64,000 bases of DNA from Paraspadella gotoi. Taxonomy: Eukaryota > Animalia > Chaetognatha. The stretch is from assembly GCA_051294375.1 (NCBI GenBank), contig CM119265.1:10743042-10807041 (forward strand), in the 5' to 3' direction. Positions 5,621 through 42,900 of the stretch are shown here, piece after piece. Position 1 is the stretch's first letter, and each line of letters opens with the position of its first letter. Under the pieces are notes generated by a model. It was not told the origin of the DNA and did not search any database. It saw only the letters and a list, made by a program, of their open reading frames with translations. A program made the position numbers and the translations under genes.

Positions 5621-7428
5621 ATAAAATGTGGTACCCTTTTTTGTGACCAGAATACTGTTCCACCAAACTACCTGAGCGAATTTAATGAATTTTTACATTA
5701 AGAGTGCGAATTTTGATATTCAACCCTGACAGAGAACAAAAATAATGCTAAATTTTTTTTTTTCATTTTCAAAATTTTTTAGTAGCATCAAGGTAACTAA
5801 CATAGGTAATGAAATACGTTTTTAGGTAATATTTGTGGACAAGTAAACGTCTGAAACCCGATCGGTAAGCTTGGGGAGAAATCACTGAAATGGAAATCGA
5901 GCTCTCTGGATAACCAAAGATTAGATATGTCGCTCCGCGCTTAAAAAAAAATCCGAAAGAACGAAGCGGTTTCTGATAATTTTGGTTTCCTAGCAATTTT
6001 TGCACCAGTAGCGCAGTAAATATTACAAAACCATGGATGATTTCTGAAACTGCCAGTGTTTGCGGCTATCCAACGCCGCCGGACAAGAAACTAAAGCGTA
6101 CAATATAAATAAACACGACCTTGGTCTGATTCTTTTTAAATTTTTTTTATTTGTGCGGTATTTACTGTATAAGTCAATTAAATATACAGCGGTCATGCAC
6201 TGATTCCATTCTGTGGGTTTAGCCTAACTTTCAAAGCACATAACGAAAAAAATAAATTGAGACATAGTAAGAAATAATAGCAATAATCCAAATTTTTTTT
6301 CTCACAAATTTGTTGTCATATTTTGTTTTTACTGTTTTTGCCAACATGCCTTTAAAATTATAAAATAAAGATAGCTAATGAAACTACAATGTCTTAGGTA
6401 CATTTCGTTGCTGGAACAAAGAAAATTCATTGATATCATAGTATCAATATGGAGCCTTGAAATAACTTATTTTCTTTGCAATTGACCACCCTTTATTGAT
6501 AAAAGGCCTTGTATATATAATAAAAAATAAAAACAACAATTTTAACCATACAGCTACATGCTTGCGTGTTTATTAACAGAATTGTTATGCTTTTTTTAAT
6601 AAAAAATACTTATACTTAATATAGCTAATAGGGCATTAGCAAAGGTTTTTAATTTTGCACCTGAAGATGACATAAAATTTAAAAATCTGATAATAGAGCC
6701 TTTTTAGCCCTCTGTCAGTAGTTTTAATCAGCCGGAACAAAGTTAAAACTCCTAAATTTTCATACTTTTAAATCATATCGTTTTTTAAGGTTCCTTCTAT
6801 TGAATTTTTTAATTTTTTTGTTTTCAACAAAATGATAATCATTTCCTTAGTAATTAATTAACATTTGAGGTATAGAAATTTGTTTATATCAGAAACATTA
6901 ATTCAATCTTTTACTCTTTCAGAATCTATATTCACTCTTATTTTAAATTACAGCCCAAGTGTGTTTTAAATTTAATTTCAAAAGTTGTTATACTTTTACT
7001 AGATCGCATCCAGATTTTTAAAAAATCCGTATGGAAATATTGAGAAAAAATATTATGGGAAAAGATGCCCCATAATTTGGCTTAATATGATACCAGTCTC
7101 ATCGTTCTATCATTTTTGCTTTTCAAAAGATTATCAAAGAAAATCAATTTTTTTATTACCAATGAAGTCACTCGGCAAAAAGCTAAAAAAATTTTGTGGC
7201 AACCAAAAGAAAATTTAACGATCACAGCATTTTTTTTTAAAAAACTTGGTGAAAAGACCATTTTTTGTTGATTATTTTTTCAACGTGTGGGGTCGATTTT
7301 GATTTGAATGTTACATCAACAATATGACATCATTCTTATCAGTAAATGTAAAAAATACTTAAAATAACATTATAAACGACCAATAACTTGTCTATCTACA
7401 AAGATAACGGATCAGAGGCTCCGAAGAA
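5621..7428 (+). mobile_element. AT-rich DNA-transposon/Helitron-like repeat in the intron (redundant copies at 1-360, ~915-1660, 2260-3070, 3640-4730, 11575-12630, 13365-13616)
   Basis: Starts ATAAAATGTGGTACCCTTTTTTGTGACCAGAA; the inverted counterpart is at ~21135-21210. Long near-identical blocks are repeated several times. Confidence 0.5.
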
Positions 7429-8283
7429 ATTTCTATCATGTTGCTCTCTCCACCACGCAGATGCTCTTTTGTTCCAGATGTCGTGTGTCCACAAGGAAGA
7501 TACAAAAGATTATCGCGGGGCGCAACAGACCTCAGGGCGTCAGAATTCAGCCCTTCTCTCTCATTGCCAAGAGTTGAAGCATTCTCTCACTGGTTCCGTT
7601 ACGAAGCGGCTTGCGAAGTTCTTCGTCTCTTTCCTTTCGAGGTCGGACCTTCGAGAGATCAAGCTTCTGTGAAGATGTGCTGGATATCTCGCCATCTTAG
7701 TGACAACAGATTGTCCTATAGCACCATCAAATTGCATAGATCGCCGCGATTTTGCGGATTTTGCCTTTGTGTGGAGGGTGGCTCCTATCGGTCAGCAACC
7801 CATTGGTTTGCCGTCTACTCAAAGGAGTTTTTTCAGCTATGGCTCCTTCGCGCCGGATCTACAGCTTGGAGTGTGGCTGCGGTACTGATCTTTGCGCGTT
7901 TTCTGATGTTGATGCCTTTCCTTTATCCTTGATATATATTCGCAAGGACTTTGTTTCTTCTTGCTTTTGGCTTCCACAGTCGACCTTTTCTGAATTGGGT
8001 CTCCTTGCGATGTGGTCCGGACCACATGGTTTTGGTGAGGATTCACATACTGTTTCGTGCCCTCCAGGCTTTCCAGACGGATCGATTCGTCATCTTGGCC
8101 CTGTTTTTCGTTTGGATCGACTGACGGTTCTGTTTGATGCCCGCGTCCTGCCTTGCGTCCTGCGTCAGACAAGTTCTACGGGCCTAGCAACAATTTTCTT
8201 TTCCTCTTCCCCGGCGCCGCCTTCATTGGACCTTTTCTCTCCAGAACGTTTTTCCGCTCTGATCAATCAGTCTTTAGAGATGC

Positions 8284-8630
8284 TGTAGTAGGTAGTATTT
8301 CATACCCACTACTCGTCCGAGATCAGCAGCACCTATGATATGCGTCGGACGGGTACACGAGCTTCCTTCCACCCAAAGGACTCGGGTTCGCGTCCCTGCT
8401 GATTCACACAGTAAAAGCGGGACGGGGGTCTAACCCACCTGTATGTGTGGACTACAGCCCGATTCCAAAGTTCGACCTTGTGCGCAACGGACGGTTAAAA
8501 TGCTCGCGGGCATTCGTCTTTCCACATTGGTGAGCCACACGAACACGCTGGCACGTTAATACACCTCTGCCCGTGCATGTTAACACACCTCTGCCTCGAC
8601 CATCGTGGGGTGAAAGACGGCGAGCAGGAA
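8284..8630 (+). mobile_element. Truncated small LTR element (sister family of the 26724-27377 element): LTR 8284-8526, PBS and partial internal region
   Basis: TG...CA LTR of ~243 bp followed by TTGGTGAGCC (same PBS start as 26958). Same order of 5' hairpin, tRNA-like unit and twister-like fold. Interrupts the DIRS YR frame. Confidence 0.7.
8407..8482 (+). ncRNA. Twister (type P5)-like ribozyme, divergent/noisy copy
   Basis: CACAG..GCGG-GA-CGG-GGGTC-T^AA-CCC-AC-[CTGTA..TACAG]-CCCGA-TTCCAAA-GT-TCGA..CTTGTG. T1 is AC/GT here versus GC/GC in the other family. Confidence 0.55.
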
Positions 8631-10394
8631 TACGGGCAGCTATGGCAGTTCGGATGGCCCTTCGCTAAAGAGAGTGACTTGGACGTCATCTTCGTGCTGG
8701 AGATTGGTTTGGGCACTCACGACTTTTCTTCCGCTTTATTGTCGGGAGTTCGTTGGGTTTCTCTAGCGGTGGTTCTTCGTGGATGAGTGATTTCCTTTCT
8801 GATTCCATCCCGAAAAGATGGAGCTTGAGAGGAGGAGGAGGAGCTCTACTCCCTTTTCTGCTTTTCTCTTTGTATTTCTTGTGGACACACAACATCCTGG
8901 AACAAAAGAGCATCTGCGTGGTGGAGAGGAGCCATGAAGGAATCCTGGTTCCATTTCTGGAAACCATAAATTACCAAATGGAATCGAGCTCTTCTGCATT
9001 GGTCGAGACTTCAATGGAAGCTCCAATGGGTTGAGAAGGCAGGAAACTTTGCCCAACGGTTTCTGATCCACAAGTGGGGTGTCAAATCCATTCCTGTCAC
9101 CACATTTAAGTAAGTAGACGGGGATTTCAAAACATTAACCAAGGTAAAATTATTGATAAAAAAGAGATAAAAAGACGGTGTCCAATTTTGGACAGAATGC
9201 TCAGATACAAGATTACATCTATTTATACAGTGCAAGTGAGATCAGATCAGGCCTCTTCACCCATTGGGCCGCTTCCATTTGGGTCATCGACCAATCAGGA
9301 AAGACAATTCAATATTTAGTTTTATTTTTATATATTTTATCGGGGTCCCGCGAAGGATGATATTTCCCAATATTCACTGCCAAAAAACCGTTTTTTAAAT
9401 TCCTACAAATGAGTTTCCGCGATATAGTCATTAAACGTCAGCTTGAAAGGCAAAATTTGTTCAGATATAAAATTTTCGAGTTTCTCTTAGATTCTACGCC
9501 GCTAGTACAAACTATTTAAAAAAAAGAGGAAAAACGTTTTTGCTGATTTTTCCAGCATAATCCATAAATGTATAAGACGATGGGTACACCTGAAAGTGAT
9601 ATGTCTCTAGAAGAAGTGAAAATTCTTCCTTTAGTTTTATTTAAAATTTAGGTATTGTACCCAATAGGATAAATTGAGATACTCCGCTTTGCCGAAATTT
9701 TATTTAACAAAAAGATTTGTTTCTGGGTAGTTCAAATCTTAGTTTCTCTAACTGTAAAAAAAGTTATTTTCTGAATAACTTTGAAAAGAAAAGAGGTTAG
9801 GATGTGCGTAGGTATTCCAAATTAAAGCCCAATTCATGGACACCTTTTTCTAAATAGCTTTTTATTAAATTATCCATAAATCTTTACACAGCTTTTATTA
9901 AATCGGAAACAGTTAAAAGTTTTATAACAGTTTTTTGCAATTAAAAATTTTCAATGACAGGCATTGTGAATTTTTTCTTCTTTCAAATTTGAAAAAGGTC
10001 AAAGACATAAATTACATTTGATTACCATTTAAATTGCTTGTATTTTTTTAGTTAAGAAAACAAGCAAAAATTATCGAAGTAGCTGGCATAAAATGTTTTT
10101 TTAATATGAAAAATGATAAATAAAAAACATATTTTTCAAGATTGATATAAAAGTCTGAACGTCATACCTTCTTGTCTGTGAAAAAAAATTGTCATTTTTT
10201 CATTATCTACAACTGCAAACAAAAAGCTTGACACGCTGCTTGTTTCTTCTTCATAATAAAATTTCTTAATTTAAAAATGACCATTGCTGGCCGACATATT
10301 TGGACACAAAGCAAGACATTCATTGTGTTATTTGTAATAAACAATTTTTTCTTTTAAATATAACAACCTTCTAGTTACAAGGAATTTAATCTTA

Positions 10395-13364: not shown

Positions 13365-13616
13365 AGCTAAAAATTTAAGTGGAACCAAAAAGAAAATTTA
13401 ACGATCACAGATTTGTTTTAAAAATTGGGCGTGGAAAATGACCATTTTTTGTTGATTATTTTTCAACGCGTGGGTCGATTGATTTGAAATGTTACATCAA
13501 CAATATTGACATCATTTCCTATCAGTAAATGTAAAAATATTTTAAAATAACATTATAAACGACCAGATAACTTGTCTATCTACAAAGATGGAACCGGATC
13601 AGAGGCTCGGGAAGAA

Positions 13617-14392
13617 ATTCTATCATGTTGCTCCTCTCCACCACGCAGATGCTCTTTTGTTCCAGATGTCGTGTGTCCACAAGAAATACAAAAGATTATC
13701 GGCGGGCGCACAGACTCTCAGGCGTCAGAAATTCAGCCTTCTCTCTCATTGCCAAGAGTTGAAGATTCTCCACTGGTTCCCGTTACGAAAGGGCTTGGAA
13801 GTTCTTCGTCTCTTTCCTTCGAGGTCGGGACCTTCGAGGAGATCAAGCTTCTGTGAAGGATGTGCTGGATTATCTCGCCCATCTTAGTGACAACAGATTG
13901 TCCTATAGCACCATCAATTTGCATAGATCGGCGATTTCTGCGACTTTGCCTTTGGTGGAGGGTGCTCCTATCGGTCAGCACCCATTGGTTTGCCGTCTAC
14001 TCAAAGGAGTTTTTCAGCTATGGCCTCCTTCGCGCCGGATCTACCCAGCTTGGAGTGTGGCTGCGGTTTTGCGCGTTTTTGATGTGATGCCATTTCCTTT
14101 TTCACCTTATGATATTTTACGCAAGACTTTGTTTCTTCTTGCTTTGGCTTCCATCAGGCGACCTTCTGAATTGGTCTCCTTGCGATGTGGTCCGGACCAC
14201 ATGTTTTTGGTTGAGGATCACATATGTTTCGTGCCCTCCAGGCTTTCCAAGACGGATCGGATTCGTCATCTTGGCCCTGTTTTTCGTTTGGATCGACTGA
14301 CCGGTTCTGTTTGATGCCCGGTCCTGGCCTTGCGTTCCTGGTCAGACAAGTTCTACGGCCTCAGCACAATTTTCTTTTCTCTTCCCCGGCGG
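13617..14392 (+). mobile_element. DIRS miniature element, 5' half, with tyrosine recombinase ORF 13853-14314
   Basis: YSTINLHRSAIS...IGQHPLVCRLLKG...W.V..VL...KTLFLLALASIRRPSEL...LSKT is the DIRS YR N-terminal/catalytic region (catalytic R and K). Left ITR from 13617. Confidence 0.85.
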
Positions 14393-16300: not shown

Positions 16301-16981
16301 ATATCTTTTTGATCTCATCCCGCGCTACAACTCGCTATTCTCCATAGCTTCTTCCGCCGAGGAAGACGGGGACGTCTTGGAAATCCTTGTCGCGGTGGTC
16401 AATACCGGACCAAGTATAATGGAGCGCGATCGTGTTCTGTTCAATTTGGCTCGCCCTTCGCCGCCCGGCAATGACTGCACGCCTTTTGTGGACTTGCGAA
16501 GGAACCCATCGACTTCCCGCGCCATTCGACGCGCTCATAATGATCGGTCCCGGAACTGGAGTAGCGCCGTTTCGCAGCCTCATCCACGAGCGGACCCTCA
16601 CTGCCGAGACCAAACAGAAGCAACTTGTTTCTTTTTTTTCGGATGCCGGTCACGAGACGAAAACTGTTACTGCGCCGAAGAGTGGGCCAGTCCTCTTCAG
16701 GTTCCAAGGACTTCTTCGAATTTTCACCGCTTTTCTCGAGACGGCGATGAAAGGTCTACGTGCAGACAAACTGTTGGAGGAATCTCGCTGTTTGGCAACT
16801 GTACACACAAAGGGAGGCATCGTATGTTTTTTTAGCCGGAAAACGCCAAGCGAATACCCGAGACATTTGGCGATTTCGGAAAATTGTAGTGAAGGAAGAA
16901 GATTATCTGAGCTCGAAGACTGAACGTAAAAATTTAAAAGACATGGAAAGAACGGAACAATCAACAGAAAACGTGGTCTGA
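16301..16981 (+). CDS. NDOR1: NADPH-dependent diflavin oxidoreductase 1 (NR1), terminal exon (FNR-like FAD/NADPH domain), many indels
   Basis: Motifs across frames: YLFDLIP..FSIASS, LEILVAVV, IMIGPGTGVAPFRS, FFGCR, FTAFSR, KVYVQ, LAG, C-terminal TWS-stop. Acceptor aaacag at 16300. Confidence 0.8.
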
Positions 16982-18116: not shown

Positions 18117-18188
18117 GTAACTTTGATGGACGATGTTTACTATGTAAATAATTGTATCAATAGGATAATTGAGATTTATAATTATTTT

Positions 18189-18621
18189 AATTTATGGTTC
18201 CAAGTGGAACCGGGATTCTTCATGGCTCCTCTCCACCACGCCAATGCTCTTTTGTTCCAGATGTCGTGTGTCCACAAGAAGACAAAGAGAAAAGCAGAAG
18301 GAGCAGACTCCTCCTCCTCTCCTCCTCTTCCTCCTCTCAGCTCCATCTTCCAGGATGCATCGGAAAGAGAAAATCACTCATCCACAAGACCCCGCTGAGA
18401 GAAACCCCAAGCCGACTCCCGACAATAAAAGCGGAAGAAAGTCTGAGCGCGCCGACCAATCTCCAGCACGAAGAATGACGTCCAAGTCCACTCCTTTAGC
18501 GAAGGCCTCTGAAACTGCCATAGCGCGAGTTGATCCAGGAGGCGCGTCAATGTCCGCATCTCTAAAGACTGACTTGATCAGAGCGGAAAAACGCTGGAGA
18601 GACAAAGGTCATGAGGCGGCG
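18189..18621 (-). mobile_element. DIRS miniature element, 3' half (YR C-terminus and right ITR), in a cathepsin D intron
   Basis: ORF 18378-18605 SVFRDADIDAPPGSTRAMAVSEAFAKGVDLDVILRAGDWS. Ends ...GGTTCCACTTGGAACCATAAATT like the 8972 end. Confidence 0.8.
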
Positions 18622-22703: not shown

Positions 22704-25700
22704 TCATTCCCTCCTGTTGGCCATCCTTCTTTGCAGATCTTGCTCGACATTTTCTCTCAATAGTGAGACGGCGCCGGGAACGTGAGCCGGATGGTTCGGT
22801 CGTCTTGGTCCCATTCCATTCCTTGGGTCCACCGGCGGACGGGCGGAAGGCGCCGGAATGGAGTCGGGCGCGGAAAGAGCATGTCGTTTGGCGAGCAATA
22901 AGAAACCCGCCAACCATTGAAAATAAGTCATTGTGTCGGGAATGTCGAGGCTGTGACCCACGAAGGGGGTGTCCCTTGAGACGACGACCGGCTCTCCTCT
23001 GATTTAGAAGAAAGGCGGACGTGAGCGGTTTTAAAGTTTAAAAATGGCGTGGATCATCAGAGCATCAGAGTACTATCGACCTAATTTTTCATTTTTTAGT
23101 CCGATGCCAACGGAAGTAGGGAGTGCGGAACCTCAGTGACCGCCTCCTATCGCTGCCATGTTTAAATTGGCCTCGTCACGTTTAAGCCAAAACTAATATA
23201 TCATTTCGCCCGCTCAGCCATTCAGGGTAAGGACGGACAGCGGTGAGGCTGCAGTCGTAGACGGCAACCATTTTCGCTCTCCTTGGCTTCTAACCTTTTA
23301 ACGAAGGTGATTCCGGAAGACTTTGCAGCGCGAGATTTGTTCTGACGCGAACCACGGCGATCTAATCTTTTCTCTTCCACGCCGAGATAAAAGTTCAACT
23401 CCTTGACTTCCCATCGTTCTTGAGTAAAGAAAAAAGAATAAACATTAGTATATGGATTTACGTACAGCGGTACAGGAGCATGTTTTTTTATTTTTTTTTA
23501 TTTCGAATTAAATGGTGGACGAATAATTCTTCAAGGCAGACCAGACAGACAGAGAGGAAGAGGAAAAAATGGGGAGATAGAAAATGCACCTGAAAATAAA
23601 CCTATGAATTGCCAAATAATATTATTTAGAATTTGTGCATCTGTGCATCACAGCTAAAAGTTTCGTTGGATCAAAGAAACTAGACACGATCCAACCTATC
23701 GTCGATATTTCTATCCAGCACTCACCGTAAACTCGTTTATTTCTTCCGTACAAGACTAAGAAGTCTTGACTCAATTCCACAGAGTACGGCTTCCAATCTG
23801 TCTTCTCGCTAAAATAAATTTCTTCCGCTGTCAAGGACTCCGGAGCCGTCAGAAGATTCAACGAGCGCAACGTCTATAGCGAAAAAAGGGCTTATTTTTA
23901 CATTCGCCGACCGGGATTTTGCGGTCGGTTATTTTTTTTTTTCGCTTTGTATATAGAAATCTCGTTACGCAAAACTAAAAAAAGGACATTGGTAAGGGTA
24001 GTAAAACTTTTTATTGCAAAATCCTAACCACCCCTAATCCCTAACCAACCTTAACACAATTGCTAACCGTTTAAAAAAAATAATACAAAAATATTATTTT
24101 CCCTTCTTTTCATCGTTTGTTTACGTACAACGAATTTTATTCAGAAACATAAATTTCGGACTTTTTTTGGCTTCAATCAGCTTCATTAGCGCAAAAACGA
24201 ATTAATTTATAAAAAGAATATTTTTACAGACTATGAAGTTTGAAGAGAGAAAGAAAGAGTCAGTGAAAATATTTTTTTTATAAATAAATTCGTTTTTGCA
24301 CTGATAAAAGCTTACATTGAAGCTGAAACATGTCCAAAATTTGTTTCTTTATAAAACTCTTACATTTTGATGCTAGTGCGGAGTACAATATAGTATTCCC
24401 CGATCTAATACTTAAGGGAGTGGTCTTTTCATACAATTGAAACATTCTTTGAAATATTATACCACTTCATTGATAGGGAAGCCAGGTTCACTGGGAGTGA
24501 ATAAATAAGACTGTGAGAGAGTCTTGATTGAAAGCTTGCAGAAACCTGCTATGTTATTATCTTGTAAGTGTGATGGAGGCCTTAAACCACCAAAGCCTGT
24601 CCAAAGTCAGGGACAAGATAGCTTATTTATTAAATGAATGGATAATTTTTATATTGGTTGTACCAATTTCATAAACAAACAACTCATTTTCTACTTCAGA
24701 CATATAAAAATAGAAACTAAAATAAATTTAAAATTATTATTTATTATAAAATTTATATTGCTGAACAAAAAATAATATAGTGCGGAGTACAATAAGTATT
24801 CCCTGATCTAATACTTAAAGGAGTGGTCTTTTCATACAATTAAAACATTCTTTGAAATATTCTCCACTTCTTTGATTGAGAAGCCAGGTACTCTGGGAGT
24901 GAATAAACGAGACTGAGAGAGTCTTGATTGAAAGCTTGCAGGGATTATGTCATTATCTTGTAAGAGTGATGAAGGCCTTAAACTACCAAAGCCTGTCCTT
25001 ATTTATTAAATGAATGGATAATTTTTATATTGGTTGTAGCAATTTCATATATTATTGCCAAAGTGAGACTCGACGCTAGAGGGAAAACAAAATTATATAG
25101 ATTAACAAAGCACCGACCGGTGGTACCTAAGGTTGGTTACGGACGTCGAATAGTAAAGTTATCTGAAAAAAGATTAGTGACTGGCTGACTGCGGAATTCA
25201 TTTTCCTTAACCGATAATGAAAATCTCGTGTAGGTATAATGTTGAAAGAAAGTAACATCTGACGTCAAACATTTTGAGATTGCAAATCTCATTTTGACCT
25301 ATATTATCAACTCGTCTTCCCGAATTTTTTTAAAACAATGACAAACCTCTTTAACGTGGTTTCTCTTGACCACTAACTGAGGCAAGTCCTCCGCCGAGTT
25401 CAAACTCCAGATTTGCCATGTCGATATGAGGGCATAAACGTCCTCCTCGTAGTGGACGAGGCGTTCCAACTGATTATTGGCGAGGGATTCAAAGAGAGCG
25501 AAGCGCTTAGGATCCGATTGCGTGACGCCGGCACCGGTTAAGGCTTGATACGTCGTTTCATGGGCCGACATTCCGGGCAGCAGCCGAATCTGGGGTGATT
25601 GGTTTATCGACGATCAAGGTTCAGTTAAGAATTTGCAAAGAATATAGCAGTTTGTGGTATTGCGGTTTATTCGCACTGCCTCACTTTCAGCTTCGTTCAC

Positions 25701-28700
25701 TAAATCTCATTGGCTCAGAGGGAGAACGCACCATCACAAGCGTTACATGTCAACCACAGTCCTAACGAGTTGGCAAAGCCAGACCGTCCTAGGGTAACCG
25801 CGCCAGTGGCAGGCGGCGCTACTGAGGGTCGGAGCCCCTAAAGCCCCCAAAGCCTCAACCCAATGGGCATTCTCGCATGGCTGTTGTATTTAGTAAGGTT
25901 TGAGGTTTGATGAAGAAACCTGTACTTCCCGCCTTCTCGCTTTCCCCGTCAGTGGTTGACCGTCTCGATTCGAAAAGTTACTGACAGATGTTCGTCAGTC
26001 GTTGGTACTTGCACAGTCTCTTGTCAGTCTTTGAGGAGTAAAGGTAAATCTTTAGTTTAACCATCACCACTAACCAGGTTTAGATTTGACTATCTAGGAA
26101 AAAAGTTAGAAACATTTTTAATTGAGGATATCTACTCGAAAACTTGCTCGATTTTTAAAAAAATCAGGATGTTTTAGATTCTACACTAAATTTCCTTTCA
26201 GTTGCTTTCTTCCATTTTTTCGTAGAATCCAACCGTATAGAAGTTAGAGGCAAAATAAGATTACTACCTCAAGTGAAAAATGGCGGAAAAAATCGCCTTT
26301 AGTTTTCCACAATTCTTGGTATTGAGTTATTTGTTTTATTTCAAATTGAGTTAGTTTATTTTTTCATTTTTTTAAATTTGGTTATGCCGAATAGACAGCC
26401 CCTCTCTTTGGTTCATAAAGGTGGCAATTGAATCGCTTTGGTCGCAGATGAAAAAGATGCAAAGTCGAGAACGCGCAACATCAACATCGGGGCTGAAAAG
26501 ATTGCGCTAAAGGTGTGAAAAAACATTTCACCTTCGTACCTCAATTCGCTTTACGAGAGCATGCCCAGACGAATGCAGGCAGTGGTCAATGCCGAGGGAG
26601 GGCATACCAAATATTGAGAATGTTTTACCCATGTTTCTGTATATTTTTTATTGAATAAATGAACTTTAAAAAAAAAAATGTTTCTAACTTTTTTCCTAGA
26701 TAGTACATACGTAAATAACCTAGTATGGTGGACTAAAATCCACCAACCGTTCATCAGCGGCCATTGGTGCCGGAGGCAAGTCATTCACCTCCCAACCCAC
26801 AGGTTCGGGGTTCTAGCCCGGTGGTCGTCTGGCAGTTAAGAGGGACGGGGCGCTTAACCCGCCTGTAACTCGGTGTTACAGCCTGATCCGAAGCTCAGGG
26901 ACTGCTTATATTGAACGGTTCTATCACTAACACATAATAATAATTACTGTCTCTTCATTGGTGAGCCCGACTTCTGAACACAACAGCAACAACAACACTT
27001 TCAGGCGACATGCCTCAACCTGGCGATGCACTTTCCGCCCACAACACATCAGGCGACATGCCTCAACTTGGTGACGACTTTCCACCAACAACAACAATTC
27101 ACTAAAGAGACGAAACAGACTTCTCCCTATGGGAGGGGGGATGTATGGTGGACTAAAATCCACCAACCGTTCATCAGTGGCCATTGGTGCCGGAGGCAAG
27201 TCATTCACCTCCCAACCCACAGGTCCGGGGTTCTAGCCCGGTGGTCGTCTGGCAGTTAAGAGGGACGGGGCGCTTAACCCGCCTGTAACTCGGTGTTACA
27301 GCCTGATCCGAAGCTCAGGGACTGCTTATATTGAACGGTTCTATCACTAACACATAATAATAATTACTGTCTCTTCACTAGATGCATTTGCTCACTGGAT
27401 CAAACGCACGATATCCTCGAATTCCTTTCTCTCCTTGGCAGCTTCTTGACGAGTTATGCTGAAAAGCCACTCGCGATGCTGAAGAAGGAAGGCTATCGTC
27501 TCCGCCTTTTGACTAAATCGTAAATTGTTCGAGCCCATCAGCGTCAGTGCCAAGATTGTGCTCTGATTTTCGTAGGGCTGTTAGAAATTACTAAAATTAA
27601 TTTTCATTCCTCCATGAATTTCACATAATTATAAGACTTTCCATTTTGTTTTCTTCGCTTTTGGAAGCGATCCTTTGAAGATGCAACAGCAGCGCTTTCA
27701 GCGTGGCTCGATTGACGACGGGAAGTTGATCCACAAGAGACTTGACGCTCCGCATCTGTTCCATCTCGTCCCTTTTGTCCTTTGTCATCATCAGGTCGCA
27801 CCATTTGTCGTGGAGAGCCGACGTCAAAAGAGAATCTGGTAATTCTCGAAAAAACCTGTAAAAGAGAGTTGTTAGAGTAAATTCAACCTTACCCTTAGTA
27901 ATTTTAACTTTGTAATTTTACCGTTTCAAAACATTGGCGACGTCATTGACGTGGACTTGGTCATCCTTCTTGCCTTCATCGTCCGATTTCACGCGGAGCT
28001 TGACTGCGCGCGCGTCGTCACGAAAACGCGCCAACAGGGCGCTCACAGCTGATTCCGTCCCGGATTCTCGATAAATGCCCTTAGATGATAATCCGTGAAG
28101 AAGGACGAAGTCCATGCAACTCTCAACAATCACTGGCACGTCGTTCTTAAGAAAGGTTCACTACAAGTTACTTAACCTCGCCTTTATCACCCGAATAATC
28201 TCACGACTCACCTTCGACAATAATTGCTCCTCGATTCTTTCTCCCGGTTTTTTGGCTTCCATGATAAAGTGGAGCCAACCTTGAGTTTCTTTTTTATCTC
28301 TCGCTTTAAGAGACACGACCCGGCCCTCCGAAAGAGTGAGGAGAATTTGAAGCCCAATTTGTTTATATCCTTGAATAAATCATATTTAAAAAATGCAATT
28401 GAAACAGTTAATACAAATATATCAATAATTGCTTTAAAAAAAACGTCAAGAACCTAAATTCTCAAATTTCCCCGATGCTCTTTTGTTCTTTTTTGCTGAC
28501 ATAAAAAATGCCTCCGTTCTAGCGATCACAGCGACATCTTTAGTTAAGATTATGTATTAAGGTATATATACTTAAGTACAGTTTTCCGAGGCAGTGCACA
28601 GCTGATTCTGATTGGTTTCCGTGATTTCGATAGATTCTAATCGAATTCTGTCCACGTGGAATCTTCAAGTCTTTTAGTTGTCACTGAGTTTTTAGTGCTT

Positions 28701-31700
28701 TTTAAAGTATTTTAGACTCTTTTTAGCCCTTTTTAGTCGGATCTGCTTATCAGCAGATTCCGACTCTATAATTCACTTTGTCGGTCCGTCGGTCCCACCC
28801 CAAAATATTGTCGGTAAATCATTATTATCATATCAGAACCTCGAATTTTGATAATTTATGCAAAAAAAATGATGTCCGTACATCCGTCTGTCCCCCCTTA
28901 GCAAAAAACTCCAATTACTCGTGATTGGATGAATGGATTGGTATGAAATTTTGTGTGTGGGTAGAAAACTGTATGAGTGAGATGGATATGAAGTTTCGAT
29001 GGAATCGTGCGAGTGGAAATTGGTTTAAATGGAAAAAACAAAAAAATCTATTTCACTATTTGAACGCCAATTGCTCATGAGCGGATAGAGCAATTGACTT
29101 GAAATTTTGTATGATGGTAGGAAAGTGTGTGATTGAGCTGGATATAAAGTTTCGATGGAATCGTGCGAGTGGAAATTAGTTAAAATGGAAAAAACAAAAG
29201 TCATATTTACTTGAAATATTTTTACTTAAATTTATTCATAATTATTATGTTTATTAAAAATTGGATAGATAAATTGAAATAGAATTTTGTGTGTGGGTAG
29301 GAAAGTATGTGATAAAGCTGGATATAAATTTTTTGATGGAATCGTAGGAGTGGAAAAGAGTTTAAATTAGAAAAGCAAAAGATACATTTATTTGAATTTT
29401 TTATAGTTTCTATCTCTTTCTGATTGATTGATTGATGGACTGACCAAATTATGCCAATTGATAAAAATATGCCAGTTGACCAAATTCTGCAAGTTGACCA
29501 AATTATGCCATTTGACCAAATTATGCTAGTTGACTAAATTATGAAATCAAGGACAGCCACTTCTCCGAACTTAGTTCACTTCAGCTATGTTATTAACTTA
29601 TTAGAGATTTGAAGGCCTAAACCCAACATATCCTGCTCAAAGTCAGGAGGCATCATATGCATCTTGATTTTTATAATGGTTGCGCTACTTTCAAAAGCTA
29701 ACAATTATTAACAGAATTAACAGAATTATCACGCTTACAAGCAGGAGAAAATCTGAATTCTCTTTATTACCTAGAAGCTCGTGAGAGACGTCTCCGCTAA
29801 TTTCTTCATCGGTTACTTGGTAGACGGTTTTACGCAATTGCATGTCGAAAACTTTTTCTTCTTTTATCGTGTAAATCGTGAGAGCTGATCCCTGCACCAT
29901 CCCAAAAACCAAAGGTGTTAAAAAGTTAACCGATTTTGTTTCCATTCCCGACAATCCGCTTATCTCTCGATTCACGGTCTGAAACTTCTCTCTGTCTCGA
30001 CCGTCTCGATTTACAATCGCGGTTTATTTTCCAAACTTACTTTGAGAACAACCCACGATTCCGTAGAGTCAATTCCCATCGACATATCCTTTACCATCAT
30101 CTTTCCAAATCTGGTGGAGCCGCTATCGGTGGCTACGAAAAGTTGTGGGGGTAGCAGGTTTCTAGCCAGACCTCGTTTCCACTCTCTCTACGTCGAAAAA
30201 CAAAAGGATATATCGAAATATTAGTTATCCATATATATGCAGTAATTAGAATTTTTCACTTAACCAATTTTTCGACCGTTTCCGCTGCGTAGATATAAGT
30301 GTGGCCCGGCACGTCGACGGAGAAGTGGTAAAGGTCATCCCTAATTTTGTATAAACATTTTGAGTTCTATAAATGTTGTTGTCTGTACTAGCTCTTAAAA
30401 ATTATCTCGATTATGAATGGAATTTTTAGTGAATGTACTTTCATTTACCGCAAGACTTTAGGCGATGGCATCGCGAGTTCTGTAACTAACCACGCCTCTG
30501 ACAATGAGACCTCTCCCTTTCCAAATAACGTTCCGTCCAAATCTTCAAAGTATGTCATCAATCCACCTTTCAGCACCCCGACGTATTTGGTATAGTTTCC
30601 GCGGGGAAGTGAAGTTTGAAAAAGGACTTCCTTGGTTTGTTCAGTGGATTCTTAAAAAAAAACAACTTATTGCTTTAGTATTTCATTATTATTATTATTA
30701 TTATTTAATTTTGTGAAGATTTTCTCTCACTTTCTTTCTTTCTTTCTGTCTTTCTTTCTTTCTTTCTTTCTTTCTTTCCTAGGCGATTTAATTCAACAGA
30801 TATGTTTGTATATTATATAATTATTATAATTATCTCACTCTCTTTTCCAGATAATGTGTCTGATTGGTCAAACTTTTGTTTTACAACTGTTACAGAGCCG
30901 GGAAGCTGGAATGGGTTTTTACGGTGCAACTTGAGAAGAGTTTCTTGCAGATATTGTCCAGATCTAAATAAAATTTGGAAATAAAGGATGATTTTTATGA
31001 AAAAAAATTCAAATAAACAAAAAATAATGTTTTAACTGGTTTATTTACAAAAATAAGAATTACTTTCGTGCTATTTCAATAGTTGAACATCCTCCCTTCA
31101 ATGAGTTGACATTGGCGCCCGTAACAATGAGTTGTATTGAAGTTAACAGATGTGGTTTCTGAACAACATTGTTAAAAAATCCAATAAGCGTAATAATTAC
31201 AAATAATAGTGGGGTTTTTTCATACCTGCACGTTGTCGTTTAGTGTTTTGTCTAAATCGTCTTGTTCTTTCATAGGGAACAGTAAACAAAATTGTCGCAT
31301 TTTGTACTTCATTACTATAAAATTAGTACGTTCTCGGAACGAAGCATTGACGCTAATTTTTTCTTGACCAAGGTGATGTTCCCACATTTTATTCGCGTTG
31401 TCATTTCCTATAAAATAACTTTTTTAACTCTATATTCTCGTATTGTTATCAATATCTTTTTTTACCTATTTCAACTAACAGCTCAACTAGTGACTTCGTC
31501 CATGACTCTCTTTCCCCCAAAAGAGGCTTAACTTTGGAATATGTTTCGCCGAGCTCTTTGTGGGCGAGAGAACAATTTTGGCAAACAACAATTCCCCAGT
31601 TCACGATTGCAAAGAGTGGATCATGTTGTCCGCAATCGGCGCAACGACGATTGGAAGGATTCTTTTGTATTTGACTCCAAACGCTTTTGTAAATTCGGAT

Positions 31701-34426
31701 GTTATTGTTAATTACGAGTTATTGGTCAAAAATTGATGGTAAAATTGTTACCTCTCCGGATCGGAAGAATGAGCTTTTCTAGATGCATCATCTACCGCAA
31801 CCCGCCAATGCGGCAACTCTGCCTCATCTTCAACAGAAAATGTTAATTTTATTACATTTTTAAAGACGATGATTAAGTGACGTGAAGGTGTATCCTGTTC
31901 GGAAGGCAATTATTATTGATGATAGATAAAAAAAACAGAAACAACAAATAAAAGTTATGTAACTCACCTGTACAACGGCATCTTTTACATCGAGTTCAAA
32001 TATTGGATTACAATCGAAATGATCTTCATCTTTGTAGACGGAGATGAAAGCTCGACTAACAGACACAAACCTTGACCCTAAGACATCTTTGCCACTCTCT
32101 TCGGGTTCTATCATTTTTAACTGCAAATACCCTGTTGTGATTGTTAAATGAATTTATAAATCCATCAAGCTTATAAATTTTCGTAAATATCTCACCGACT
32201 TTGTCGTGGTGAATAACCCTTGTCTCCGATTTCTTGTCGTCTATCACCGTCTGTTGAATTAGGTTCAAAATTTCCCAACTTTTTTGTCTCAAGTAATTTA
32301 CTGTCAATGCCCAATATATATTAAAAATACCTTCATAATGTTCATACTCCATTCGCACATTTCCTTGGCCGTTGGAACCGAAAAAACGTATTCTCGGTTT
32401 TTAATGGCGACAACAACTCGAAACGGCCGACTCTCATCACCCTTACATTCCATCGTTTTCACATCCATACGACTGCCGCGTATCACAAGTCTAGTAAAAT
32501 TCGTTATTATTCGTTATTTTTTTCATGATATAACATATTGATGACTCCTTTTCCGTTTTTGATTTCTTTTGGGGTTACTTTTTTTTACAACGTGAGTAAC
32601 ATTTACAGTTGATAAAGTAATAGGTGAAGGAGACTATACAATACTTAGTAGTACAATATATAGTATACATACTTCGAAAGAATATCCTTTTCATTTGCAT
32701 ACAGTTGTAGACTCGATCCAATCTCTTTGGATGAGATTAGACGGCCCCAGTAAGGCTTCCATTGAGTTAATCCTGTTAATAAAAATTGTGGCAGTTATTG
32801 TAAATTCTGCACAAATGTATTGCTGACAGTATTACCGACAGTTGTTTTCAATTGCCAGCAAAGCGTTCCTTCTTTAACTGTTGTCATCCTCGAGTAATGG
32901 CCTTTGTCATCCCGGGTCGGCTCTCGAGGGGTCCCATTTGATTCATGATCTTAATGATTGAGATTAAACACAACATACAGTAAAACTGCTATCGAACAAG
33001 TTTGAGCAAACAATGTCGGATCTGCCTACAAATAATTAGGAGGTAATAAGCTAACTTTGGTCAACTTGCATAATTTAATCAACTTGCATTATTTGGTCAA
33101 CTGGCATAATTTGGTCAACTGACATAATTTTGTCAGCTGGCATAATTTGGTCAACTGACATATTTAGTTAACTAACATAATTTCGTCAACTGATATAATT
33201 TGGTAAACTGACATAATTTGGTCAACTGACTTAATTTGTTTGACATAATTTGGTTAACTGACATAATTTGTTCAACTGACATAATTTGGTCAACTGAGTA
33301 ATATTGGTCAACTGACATAATTTGATCAATTAACATAATTTGGTCAACCGGCATAATTTGGTCAACTTGGCATAATTTTATCAACTGGCATAATTTTATC
33401 AACTGCATAATTTGGTCAACTGGCATAATTTACTCAACTAGCATAATTTGGTCAAATGGCATAATTTGGTCAACTTGCAGAATTTGGTCAACTGGCATAT
33501 TTTTGTCAATTGGCATAATTTGGTCAATCAATCAATCATGAGAGAGATAGAGAGAGAAAAACTTTAAATAATTCAAATAAATGGTCTTTTGGTTTTCTAA
33601 TTTGAACTCTTTTCCTCTCCTATGATTCCATCAAAAAAATTTATATCCAGCTTTATCACATACTTTCCTACCCACACACAAAATTCTATTTCAATTTTAT
33701 CTATCCAATTTTAATAAACATAATAATTATGAATAAATTTAAGTATAAAATACTTCAAGTAAATATGACTTTTGTTTTTTCCATTTTAACTCATTTCCAC
33801 TTGCACGATTCCATCGAAACTTATATCCAGCTCAATCACACATTTTCCTACCCACACACAAAATTTCATACCAATCCATCCATCTAATCACGAGTAATTG
33901 GAGTTTTTTGCTAAGGGGGGACGGACGGACGGACATTTTTTTTGGCATAATTTATCATAAATCGAGGTTCTGATATGATAACAATGATTTACCGACAATA
34001 TTTTGGGGTGGGACCTACAGACCGACAAAGTGAATTATAGAGTCGGAATCTGCTGATAAGCAGATCCGACTAAAAACTAAGAGAAAATTTATTACTATTT
34101 GGTTATATTATTAACAAAAGGAAGAGACAGTAATAATAGTAAACCTGTTCTACCTTTAAAAATGACTTCCGCATACTCGCTCTCCCCATTTTCTATGTCA
34201 AGTATCTGCTGATGATCATGATGTTCCTAAATATACATGTAAAATATTTTTATTAAAACTTTTTTTCGGATATATGGTAATTTTATACTATTCTGTTAAA
34301 ACAATTTTGCGCAGGTCCACTGTTGTTGTTTTCTTGAGTCGTGGCGACATTTTCAAAAGCCTTTGCCAACGCTGCCACGCGTGTTTGAGCACATAGAACG
34401 TCGTCGTATATCTCATCATCATCCAT
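22704..34426 (-). CDS. ARAP: ARAP/centaurin-delta-like gene, copy A (multi-exon; PH-PH-ArfGAP-ANK-PH-PH-RhoGAP-RA-PH)
   Basis: Exons spliced by eye: PH1 ~32948-32331, PH2 ~32132-31752, ArfGAP ~31683-31226 (CADC-x16-CQNC), ANK 31158-30839, PH3/4 30650-28212, RhoGAP 28146-27396 (GIYRESG, VLKRFFRELP), RA 25589-25347, PH5 23873-23726, 23418-23295, 22998-22704. Start ATG 34426 is tentative. Confidence 0.88.
23882..25163 (+). mobile_element. 5'-truncated copy of the TIR element at 34960-35882, with an inverted hammerhead pair and an internal tandem duplication (24374-24675 / 24778-25045)
   Basis: Colinear with 35180-35882. Right TIR at ~25060-25163. Hammerhead-like motif at 24301-24334. Confidence 0.6.
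26090..26703 (+). mobile_element. Tc1-derived MITE-like element, complete
   Basis: TIRs CTATCTAGGAAAAAAGTTAGAAACATTTTT at both ends, TA after the right end. Retains the Tc1 transposase C-terminus ESMPRRMQAVVNAEGGHTKY* (~26555-26617). Confidence 0.88.
26758..26827 (+). promoter_or_regulatory. tRNA-like unit with degenerate Pol III A/B boxes inside LTR1 (repeated at 27178-27247)
   Basis: 70 nt. Acceptor-like stem CGGCCAT/GTGGTCG, A-box-like TGGTGCCGGAGG, B-box-like GGTTCTAGCCC. The anticodon stem does not pair. Confidence 0.55.
26832..26905 (+). ncRNA. Twister ribozyme, type P5, in LTR1 (predicted cleavage U26855/A26856)
   Basis: P5 GCAGTT/GACTGC; P2' GAGG then GA; T2' CGG; U^AA; P2 CCC; T1 GC; P3 CTGTAAC/GTTACAG; P4 CCTGA/TCAGG; L4 TCCG-AA-GC. 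Same element order as known twisters. Confidence 0.78.
27252..27325 (+). ncRNA. Twister ribozyme, type P5, in LTR2 (predicted cleavage U27275/A27276)
   Basis: Identical to 26832-26905, 420 nt downstream. Confidence 0.78.
28735..29550 (+). mobile_element. Helentron-associated (HINE/DINE-1-like) non-autonomous element, 3'-truncated
   Basis: 5' subTIR hairpin AGTCGGATCTGC-TTATCA-GCAGATTCCGACT after a T-run, (GTCC)-type microsatellite, internal repeats, 18-bp GTTGACCAAATTATGCCA units. Confidence 0.75.
32995..34071 (-). mobile_element. HINE/DINE-1-like element, complete, with 18-bp satellite array (~33055-33530)
   Basis: 5' subTIR hairpin at 34041-34071. 3' subTIR GCAGATCCGAC plus hairpin GTTTG-CT-CAAAC at 32995-33026. 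T-rich ends. Confidence 0.8.
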
Positions 34427-37442: not shown

Positions 37443-37994
37443 AGTCGGATCTGCTCTATAATTCACTTTGTCGGTCCGCCCCCTCATCCGCCGCCCTCAA
37501 TCTTATCGGGGATTCACTTATATCATATCAGAACCTCGAATTATGATAAATTATACCAAAAAAATAATGTCGGTTTGTCTGTCTGTCCGTACGCCCCACC
37601 TTAGCAAAAAACACCAATTACTCGCGATGGATGGATGGATTTGAATTAAATTTTGTATGTGGGTAGGAAAATGTGTGATTAAGCTGGAAATCAAGTTTCT
37701 ATGGAATCGTTTGAGTGGACATGAGTTTAAATGTAAAAATACAAAAAACCTGTTTTACTAATTGATTATGCTTCTTTTTCTTTTTATATTAAATGCAAAT
37801 GCAAGATGTATTAATTAATCAAATAATTAATCAGTTAATTAATCAATTTGTCAATTAATTAATCAATCAAAGCAAACATTTCAGATCAAATTAATCAATT
37901 GCTTAATAAATTAATTAATTCACTTGAATTAATTAATTATTAATTAATTACCGATAATGATCGTGGGCAGATCCGACATTGTTTGCTCAAACTT
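37443..37994 (+). mobile_element. HINE/DINE-1-like element (short variant); another 3' end at 36895-36925
   Basis: AGTCGGATCTGC start, GGCAGATCCGACATTGTTTGCTCAAACTT end, (AATT)-rich tract. Confidence 0.75.
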
Positions 37995-39921: not shown

Positions 39922-42900
39922 GAGAGAGAGGGGGCAAAGTTTTCAACACAGAGTTGAGTAAAGGATAGTGGTCAGTTTGAGGACAGGCTAAGGTGATGAC
40001 AGACAGAGTGAGTTGGGTGAAAGAAATTGGAAATGGTGAGAGAGAGAGAGAGAGAGACATTAAGAAAAATAATACATTTTTGTAATGTACTACAAAGATA
40101 AAAATTATAAACTAATGTGACAATAAATAATGTTAACAATTAACTACTTTAAATTAGTGAAAGTGAAAAGGAAAATTTGAGTGTGAAATTGAAAAAAAAA
40201 ACCAATAAATCGTTGTTGAATCCATTTCAAACTTTTCTCTAAATATTTTACCTGAAAAAGATTTCTTTCTTTGCCGCCTTGATCCTGCAGCTTTTCGACC
40301 GAGACAGAGAAGTTCACTTGTTCTGTTTTTACCGCTTGCGGCGAGACAGGAGGCGTTTCCATGCGTCTGGGTATGACGAAGTTAAATTTAAACTTTGCGT
40401 CGCACGTGACCAAGAAAACTAGAGATTAAATACAAACGAACGTTTGAAGTTCAATGATCCCTTCAAATTCGCGTTTTTCTTTTTCCGCATTTTCGCCAGA
40501 AACGTCGAAGAGAAAGTCGCGATGCGTCGTTAAATATTTGACGGAAGCGATTTTCGCGTTAAAGTCCCGAGAACTGGTTCCCATCAACGCGTTGGCAAAG
40601 ATGATGCTCAGATTTAGTAGATCCTTTTATTTGTGCACCGTTGATAAAATAGAAAGTTAATGAATAAAAATTTAAATGTGATTTAATCCCAACATTTAAA
40701 TTCTAATGCTAACAAAATTTAACAGTAAAACTAAAAGTTAAATCTCACCACTTTATTAAATTCACTTTCCGAGGAGATGCGCCGAAAGTGCAGCAACAGC
40801 GCCTTCAGCGTCGCCAGACGAACAGGCGACAGAAGCCGCAGCAGCTTTTTGACTCTAAGGTGCGATTCATCTGCCTTCAATTCCTGCTCCATTAAAGCGC
40901 AGATTTCGTCGCGAAATGAGGGAGGCAAGAGACGCTCGCGTAATTTTTGCAAGAATCTTAAAATGGATAACGAAAGACGTTATAAAGTAATAAACATTAT
41001 AAAGTAAAAGTGATAAACACTCTGCATTCAACATACCCCAGTAACACTTTGGCGACAACGTACGCCGAACTCGAAGAAAGTTCGACTGCGGTGGCGTCGT
41101 CACGGAACTGCTGCAGTAGCGACGAAACGTGGTCCTTGTCTGTTGAATCGCGTTTGTAGATTCCGGGACTTCTCCGGCCGTAAATGAGCACGTAATTCAT
41201 GCATTCTTTAACGATAACCGGAACGTTATCCTTAAAAAATAATTCATCGTTAAAAGCAACTTTGAAACTTGCTGTGCTATTATAGAAAAACTTTATCTTG
41301 GACGATTGCTTTTTGTATGACGGACGCACCCTCGTCAACAGCTGCTCCTCGATTCCCTCGCCCGCCCGTCTGGCGTCGTTTATAAAGCCGCACCACTGCT
41401 CCGTCTCCGCCGCGCTCTTCGCTCGCAAAGAAACTTTCCTGCCACGCAAATTAAGACAGAGTTCAGATTCGCCTCGACGCGATCGCTCAACTTTGGCCGC
41501 GCTCGATGTTTTCCTTAGGTTCAGGCGGATTATTCTTTCTTCAAAAACGACGAAAATGAGCAAACTGGATCCCTGAAGAACAAAAAGGTACTCAAAAAGT
41601 GCGATAATTTTCAGTTGGTTAAGAGCCTGGTATTTTTTTAAAGAAGAGAAATGACTTACTTGGAGCACTACCCAAGCATCTCTGGATATCGTTTCTGAAT
41701 CGAAAATAATTTTTTCGAATCTCGTGTAGCCTTGAGGTATAACGAGATGGAACATTTGAGGAGGCAAAAAATTTAACGCCAGACAACATTTCCAGTTTTC
41801 CTAATAAAGAAAGTAAAAATATTTGTAATGTTATAACATGGACTAACATGCGGACGTGGAACAGACCAGTTTCTAAATCAACTCTCAGAGTATCCAATAT
41901 CCATCTTTATTGGTTTTCCCCTAAACCTGAGAGAAACTGTCGAGTTACTATGTTCCTCGGTACGTTTTTTGATAAAAGGATTCTGTCCGCAAAATAAAGT
42001 AAAATGTCTGATCAAGTTAACCTTAATAACCTTATCGTCGTCTTGTTTCGCGGATAGTAAGTGCGTCTGATTCGGGGTCTTAATTTCAAACAGGTTTTTC
42101 CTGTAAAAGTTAAAAAATTTATAGTTTTCATGACTATAGTTTTGGTTATGATTATCATATTTTCATTCGATTCGAAGTTAAAATTATGACACTTAATATC
42201 ATTCTCTTCATCATCTGCATCTTCTGAGCTTCTCTATTAATGAATGTAAAGCGGGATTAAGTAAGATAAATACTTCAATAAAAAAAATTTTGTTTACAGT
42301 CCTGTGCAAAAAATACGCGTCACTTTATTTCAGACTTTCCTACGATAATCAGATGGGATGTCCGATGAATGTGATAAGAAAATTTATAAATAAATTGAGA
42401 GAGAAAAACATAACTATTAACTAATGATAACTAGATCATAACATTATAAATCATAAAAGATTTATAAATTAATCAATCATTTAACCATATTAACAATCAA
42501 TCAATCAATCAGAGAAACTTTTAAAAATTCAAATAAATATGTATTTTGGTTTCCTAATCTCAACTCTTTTTCACTTTTCCATCAAAAATTTTTATCCAGC
42601 TTGATTCCATACTTTCCTACCCACACACAAAATTTCAATTTATCAATACAATTTTTGATAAATAAAATAATTATGAGTAAATATAAGTAACAAAAAGTAA
42701 ATGTCACTTTTGTTTTTTCCATTTAAACTAATTTCCACTCGCACGATTCTTTCGAAACTTTATATCCAGCTCAATCACGCACTTTCCTACTAACACACAA
42801 AACTTTATTCCAACCCATCCATCCAATAACGAGTAATTGGATTTAATACTAAGGGGGGATGGACGGACGGACAGATATCATTTTTTTTGCATAATTTATC

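Follow-up and report, generated by a model that had tools for sequence, protein, structure and literature searches.

Short non-coding LTR elements with a tRNA-like head and a predicted type-P5 twister in Paraspadella gotoi

Features of the locus

The window (the whole stretch of 64,000 nucleotides analysed here, a noisy, gapped assembly) contains three families of short repeats that share a twister-like domain (Table 1). At 8284 lies a single LTR of family 2, with the start of a PBS and some 110 nt of internal sequence behind it. The element breaks off near 8640, and the locus has no 3′ LTR, PPT or TSD. The insertion is hosted by a DIRS-like repeat, and the homologues of that repeat at 13369-14391 and 18621-18188 have an empty site with about 30 nt extra. 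The DIRS-like fragments (7187-8973, 13369-14391 and 18188-18621) are 46-50% identical to their closest database proteins. Among the contigs listed from short-read runs, two runs show the empty site at 8284 and the junctions at 8283 and about 8640 are unbridged; the locus may be polymorphic or chimeric. The family-2-like copy at 44284-44477 terminates just past its PBS start.

Family 1 is represented by a complete element. It spans 654 bp (26724-27377), is non-coding, and has two LTRs of 234 nt each (26724-26957 and 27144-27377) that differ at 2 positions; both differences fall in the tRNA-like head, and the two twister domains are identical. Between the LTRs lies an internal region (26958-27143) with a PBS at 26959-26971 and a PPT at 27131-27141, and the whole is flanked by the 4-bp TSD CTAG (26720-23 and 27378-81), seen at this one locus only. 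The termini are fixed by contigs with loose ends, as one DNA run holds 118 contigs with unlike flanks beyond 26724 and 60 beyond 27377. The element has a summed depth of 0.6-3.4 million, its flank one of 212; this quantity is not a copy number and is read only as “very many copies”. The order LTR-PBS-internal region-PPT-LTR with a 4-bp TSD is thus seen in family 1, and both family 1 and family 2 exist in many copies. Family 3 is less complete: in 24374-24671 no tRNA head, PBS or PPT was recognised. The family-3 copies (24374-25047 and 29581-29692) terminate in a TGGTTG...TTTCA motif resembling a PBS.

The family-1 element sits antisense in an intron of a host GAP gene, 14 nt from the donor; the gene has animal-like ArfGAP, RhoGAP and RA exons. 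A RhoGAP exon pair of this gene encloses a 64-nt GA-AG intron (27578-27641, minus strand, in frame), which is skipped by a contig of one run and present as GA in a DNA run; introns of this type are frequent in Eurytemora and Oikopleura (PMC7072748, in the accessible sections). Elsewhere the window holds an oxidoreductase NAD-binding fragment (16420-16920, a weak Pfam match) and dispersed MITE- or Helitron-like repeats that contain 18-nt tandem units and lie in both orientations, at 28730-34090, 37449-37750, 42590-42870, 45069-45500, 52611-53460 and 60692-63390.

Table 1. Positions of the repeats and their parts within the window
Position	Strand	Feature	Basis or remark
7187-8283	+	DIRS-like tyrosine-recombinase repeat hosting the insertion; continues at 8639-8973	DIRS label inferred from integrase-SAM match
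8284-8526	+	Family-2 LTR (TG...CA), the copy of the original prediction, noisy or decayed	Homology and contigs
8285-8312	+	5′ hairpin of family-2 LTR	z -3.37; 0 of 200 shuffles equally stable
8322-8403	+	tRNA-like head with 8-bp closing stem; GGTTC (box-B core) at 8385-8389; probable internal promoter for Pol III	
8407-8482	+	Twister-like domain of type P5; G8421 as general base; predicted cut 8431/8432	P4, 3-bp pseudoknot and P1 defective in this copy
8527-8640	+	PBS (tRNA-Trp-like start) and 3′-truncated internal region	
24374-24671	+	Family 3, with a 5′ hairpin and, at 24558-24620, an intact twister-like domain	
24778-25047	+	Second family-3 copy; lacks L4 and the 3′ side of P4 through a 20-nt deletion; palindromic P1 retained	
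26720-27381	+	Complete family-1 TRIM with TSD	Contig loose ends and sequence
26758-26827	+	tRNA-like head of family 1; box A degenerate, GGTTC as box-B core	z -2.33; 3 of 200 shuffles
26832-26905	+	Family-1 twister-like domain, 5′ LTR; G26844; palindromic P1 at 26849-26854; predicted cut 26855/26856	
27252-27325	+	Family-1 twister-like domain, 3′ LTR; predicted cut 27275/27276, giving a 420-nt unit	
29581-29692	+	Decayed family-3-like fragment; P1 palindrome and P4 kept	
44284-44477	+	Family-2-like LTR with tRNA head, 3′ tail and PBS start; A-rich spacer replaces the twister domain	

Two diverged LTR families

The original prediction held that the LTR at 8284 is a diverged sister of the one at 26724 that preserves the same RNA architecture through compensatory base changes. 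As an observation it stands in part, with partial support for its interpretation; the motifs that it quoted all occur where it placed them. The two LTRs are indeed diverged homologues: they are identical at 145 of 243 positions globally (about 60%), nhmmer connects them in both directions (E=1.6e-5 and 2.6e-6), and their alignment score of 127 compares with 55.7 ± 9.9 (maximum 88) for 200 shuffles. Both follow the same order of 5′ hairpin, tRNA-like head and type-P5 twister-like domain. Each 5′ hairpin beats all 200 of its shuffles (z -3.4 and -3.8), but their dimensions are unlike (a 9-bp stem containing a mismatch, with an 8-nt loop, versus a 7-bp stem with a 6-nt loop), so that what they share is an architecture and not pair-by-pair covariation. 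The covariation proposed for the closing stem of the tRNA-like head does not hold, as the quoted stems are offset: ATCAGCAG of family 2 matches ATCAGCGG of family 1 (26753-26760) at 7 of 8 positions, and not CGGCCAT. The base changes in the 2-bp pseudoknot (GC/GC in family 1, AC/GT in family 2) and in P5 were read correctly. The heads of both families have a cloverleaf-like fold, with the box-B core present and box A degenerate. Neither ARAGORN nor Rfam calls a tRNA in them (ARAGORN specifically at the family-2 head, 8322-8403), and within the window ARAGORN reports 0 genes and Rfam 0 hits at gathering level.

The prediction also noted that the 3-bp pseudoknot and P4 are imperfect at 8284, and they are: the pseudoknot has 1 mismatch, P4 is out of register, and P1 is 5 nt. 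The relaxed twister score of this copy, 25.0, falls inside the shuffle maxima (24.75-26.5, 12 shuffles) and is at chance level taken alone, and folding of its whole LTR is not above shuffles (z -0.75). Four short-read runs contain 139, 104, 52 and 21 family-2-like contigs, 0 of which are at least 99% alike to the 8284 copy. In three of the four runs the contig loose ends, among those listed, have P4 fully paired and the 3-bp pseudoknot intact, and the family-2 variants listed have P5 complete and P1 at six bases. The check attached to the prediction, whether accurate reads fail to form P4 and the pseudoknots, therefore came out in its favour. Family 2 is multi-copy, and the defects at 8284 are specific to that copy. 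Flank differences at 8284 are mostly indels, as expected of noisy reads (one contig has 0 substitutions and 5 gaps in 63 nt), which suggests read error, with decay as the alternative. Contigs of families 1 and 2 with many different flanks also occur in one run that looks RNA-like for its spliced contig, with no discrete element RNA, and they are given no weight here; none of the runs containing the families is on record as RNA. Another organism and a biofilm metagenome yielded 2 and 1 low-depth contigs, too few to use.

Evidence for a twister fold

In the proposed fold, PK1 is the 2-bp and PK2 the 3-bp pseudoknot. The conserved GA, the U/AA site and the L4 U...A residues are present, and P2, P4, PK1 and PK2 are fully paired in families 1 and 3, and in family 2 in the read contigs, not in the 8284 copy. 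A type-P5 descriptor finds three matches in the window (both family-1 LTRs and a locus at 24572) and 0 in 18.6 Mb of shuffled window, and a relaxed twister score gives 30.5 for both family-1 LTRs and for family 3; descriptor and score were written after the sequences had been seen, which inflates the contrast with shuffles. As a positive control, 13 of 240 fetched loci passed the first version of the descriptor. Ten of those 13 were given to Rfam (two near-duplicates and one loose match were left out), and nine are twisters, eight of type P5 and one of type P1. On family 3, Rfam Twister-P5 is the top match (25.6 bits, E=0.004, below the gathering score of 37.6). For families 1 and 2, Rfam at E<=10 returns no twister, only unrelated weak matches. 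MFE folding does not recover the twister, which is the usual outcome with pseudoknots.

Families 1 and 3 can be compared pair by pair. The twister domain of family 3 has a P5 of 8 bp unrelated to that of family 1, lacks P3, and has AGGCCT as P1; core pairs are kept in 12 of 12 cases, with double-sided changes in P2 (C-G/A-U), PK2 (C-G/U-A) and PK1 (G-C/A-U). Three P4 differences were not counted as compensations, since one added pair explains them. Read in this way, all twister helices and both pseudoknots appear with compensating changes across three families. The suggestion in the original prediction that this is a family under selection for structure fits the many family-2 copies with intact helices, and the third family with its double-sided changes and its Twister-P5 match. 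Among the variants listed, those common in family 1 fall in the P3 loop, the linkers or the tail, or turn G-U into Watson-Crick pairs; one common variant, which makes up 15% of depth in a single run, disrupts PK2 pairing at one position.

The domains depart from the twister consensus in two respects. P2 has 3 bp and a bulge, not 4 bp, and P4 is closed by A-U in families 1 and 2, not by the near-invariant G-C (consensus features as given in accessible sections of PMC5408937). A screen of about 2600 natural twister candidates found that defects in P1, P2 and P4 are tolerated, and that pseudoknot or catalytic defects are not (PMC11662667, from the accessible text). Pseudoknots and catalytic residues are intact in families 1 and 3, and intact copies probably cleave. 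No relatives were found elsewhere, in collections that are mostly prokaryotic and whose blanks carry little information. In metagenomes a strict pattern had 0 matches; a looser one had about 2500, mostly by chance, and among 120 of these that were fetched the descriptor accepted 1, with no Rfam match. Two strict viral scans gave 0, and short-P1 scans passed none of 4 loci in genome contigs and 1 of 240 viral loci, whose P1 is non-palindromic. This viral contig (L401:401-435, minus strand; P1 of 6 nt) is possibly a chance match.

Some observations run against the retrozyme reading favoured below: the family-2-like copy at 44284 has no twister, the LTR status of family 3 is only putative, and box A is degenerate. 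The twister could be a passenger of an ancestral SINE-like insertion, no longer needed, with the families spreading regardless. The copy at 44284, with its head, tail and PBS, would be expected under such an account, as would the decayed family-3 copies and the result of text searches, which find no such motif in most published Helenus LTRs (in the accessible supplement). A passenger should not, however, keep its structure over 40% sequence divergence with double changes, nor would one expect an intact young family-1 element whose common variants lie mostly outside the core, and we consider this explanation very unlikely.

A self-complementary P1

Neither the class of element nor this stem was named in the original prediction. 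P1 consists, in each family, of a self-complementary word of six bases that lies between PK2 and U/AA; 5.3% of hexamers have this property. The word cannot form a hairpin in any of the three families, as P1 does in type-P5 twisters, and its self-duplex is worth -8.3 kcal/mol in family 1 and -9.1 kcal/mol in family 3. The word has CG at its centre in family 1 and GC in family 3; two decayed family-3 copies retain it. By comparison, P1 segments are 15-24 nt in the 8 Rfam-confirmed phage P5 twisters.

A stem of this kind suggests that the twisters of two LTRs pair with one another. They could share one 6-bp P1 in a “double twister”, an arrangement argued by analogy, and from a palindrome with about two independent origins, to which we give somewhat less than an even chance. 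The analogy is with hammerheads of Penelope-like elements and amphibian retrozymes, which have short palindromic stems and cleave as dimers (PMC6765202 and PMC7229834, accessible sections). P1 is reported to be dispensable in twisters (PMC5408937 and PMC11662667, likewise in part), so monomers may cut as well.

The palindrome also lends itself to a reading in which the fold persists for some role other than catalysis, such as that of a dimerisation or packaging signal, and cleavage is slow or absent. The retroviral dimer-initiation site is an analogue of such a GC-rich palindrome. The presence of the palindrome in all three families would suit a signal of this sort, as would the departures of P2 and P4 from consensus and the lack of an Rfam match for families 1 and 2. 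Pairing alone would not explain why the catalytic G, the U/AA site and both pseudoknots are kept with compensation, or why an unrelated ribozyme class occupies the same slot in the wasp element Helenus-2 (see below); we regard a purely non-catalytic role as quite improbable.

A proposed replication cycle

The reading that we favour, with a probability of roughly 55%, is that the stretch at 8284 is an LTR of a family of non-coding mini LTR retrotransposons: Pol III-driven LTR retrozymes of animals, with a type-P5 twister predicted to self-cleave. Transcription by Pol III would start in the head of the 5′ LTR and read through the element, in which no T4 run occurs (26756-27377 in family 1 and 8284-8645 in family 2). 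The twisters of both LTRs would then cut between U and A; cuts at 26855/26856 and 27275/27276 would release a unit of 420 nt without a terminal repeat, that is, one lacking an R region. Plant retrozymes manage without an R region by becoming circular and serving in that form as templates for reverse transcription (PMC4918200, in its accessible sections). Here a host ligase would circularise the 420-nt unit (folding of the predicted circle is moderate, with z -2.1 against 40 shuffles), tRNA-Trp would prime the circle, and a Gypsy-type element would copy it and insert the copy, along the lines proposed for plant retrozymes. In contigs, the junction of such a circle would have the sequence of an LTR. 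More speculatively, the six-base P1 might pair between the two LTR copies and give a domain-swapped double twister that favours cuts in two-LTR transcripts.

The same layout could serve a linear RNA. An active twister might act as a 3′-end former, with transcription starting in the 5′ head, cutting confined to the 3′ LTR, about 100 nt of R kept, and ordinary strand transfer without a circle. The element has no T4 terminator and so needs another 3′-end signal, the distance from head to cut gives a usable R, and the MFE fold of the full transcript has alternative pairings around the domains. The two twister domains are identical, however, so that selective cutting would require an extra mechanism, and circles are known from plant LTR retrozymes with the same two-ribozyme layout (PMC4918200, accessible part). 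We hold the linear route to be unlikely.

The retrozyme reading can be widened into an animal class of LTR retrozymes, transcribed by Pol III, in which one slot accepts different ribozymes (a twister here, a hammerhead in the wasp Helenus-2) and a domain-swapped palindromic-P1 dimer that cuts mainly full-length two-LTR transcripts. This composite is doubtful taken whole; if true, it would be the first case of a dimeric twister in nature and of an LTR element built on a twister. In tRNA-Trp-primed elements two unrelated ribozyme folds appear to occupy the same slot, and no other observation hints as strongly at self-cleavage as the selected function.

Relation to known systems

The closest relatives by layout are the Helenus elements, TRIMs with a tRNA-like LTR containing GGTTC and a 4-bp TSD in animals, 311-1263 bp long and probably mobilised by a Gypsy helper (Kojima, 2024; PMC10886601, accessible sections). 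Family 1 resembles Helenus/TRIMp3 in being non-coding and below 1.3 kb (654 bp), with two LTRs, PBS, PPT, GGTTC and a 4-bp TSD, and its PBS agrees with that of Helenus-2_SyJa, for tRNA-Trp, at 13 of 14 positions (from the available part of PMC10886601); family 2 is represented at 8284 by a single LTR with the PBS and a portion of the internal region. The present elements differ in the twister-like domain after the tRNA head, in the start of the family-1 LTR (TA, not TG), and in a box A that is not exactly TRGCY..YGG. In the accessible text of the Helenus paper no ribozyme is mentioned, the word occurring once, in a reference title. A literal search of its supplement, as far as accessible, with eight L4 variants gave 7 matches, 1 of them in an LTR and none in a twister context by eye, and line breaks in that file can hide matches. 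In the same supplement (PMC10886601, DataS1), the Helenus-2_SyJa and Helenus-2_SyUm LTRs of two Synergus wasps contain by eye, after the tRNA head, a type III hammerhead unremarked in the accessible text: a CUGAUGA and GAAA core, a GUC site, a 7-bp stem I, a 4-bp stem II and a 12-nt loop-loop complement.

With plant LTR retrozymes (Cervera, 2016; PMC4918200, accessible sections) the elements share a ribozyme motif in the same place of both LTRs (in family 1, at the level of the motif), PBS, PPT, a 4-bp TSD, the lack of an ORF, a predicted R-less unit and a likely Gypsy helper. They differ in their animal host, in having a twister and not a type III hammerhead (Rfam gives no hammerhead match in the window or in families 1 and 2), in the tRNA-like head, and in a PBS for tRNA-Trp, not tRNA-Met. 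The unit would be 420 nt here against about 600-800 nt in plants, where circles are known; here they are predicted (plant data from the accessible text of PMC4918200). Metazoan retrozymes and Penelope-like elements (PMC7229834 and PMC6765202, in part) are likewise animal repeats whose ribozyme has a short palindromic stem and needs two tandem copies, but they are Penelope-like or without LTR, PBS and PPT, and they carry hammerheads.

As a ribozyme, the domain resembles Rfam RF02684 in its order (P5-P2-GA-PK2-P1-UAA-P2-PK1-(P3)-P4-L4-P4-P5), its catalytic G and A and its 8-nt L4. It differs in the 6-nt palindromic P1 in place of a 15-24-nt hairpin, in the 3-bp bulged P2, in a first PK2 pair that is C-G or U-A, and in its eukaryotic LTR setting. 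The Schistosoma Perere-3 twister variants (PMC8501958) are also tied to a retroelement, but that element is an autonomous non-LTR one with a single ribozyme at its 5′ end. In the literature searched, with few subscription journals and some sources accessible in part, no LTR with a twister, no LTR retrozyme of an animal and no dimeric twister of natural origin was found. Animal retrozymes are described as non-LTR (PMC7229834, accessible sections), and LTR retrozymes have been described from plants, with hammerheads.

The biological role of twisters is mostly open (PMC8501958), and the elements would give them a specific job, as well as explain how the RNA of a terminator-less Pol III TRIM is defined. 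A natural twister with a palindromic P1 would be a new ribozyme architecture missed by standard Rfam scans, and for that reason more may hide in repeat libraries. The elements would join Helenus and the retrozymes, extending LTR retrozymes to animals: the feature itself is real and combines traits of both with a different class of ribozyme, its activity, circles and dimers being predictions of the model.
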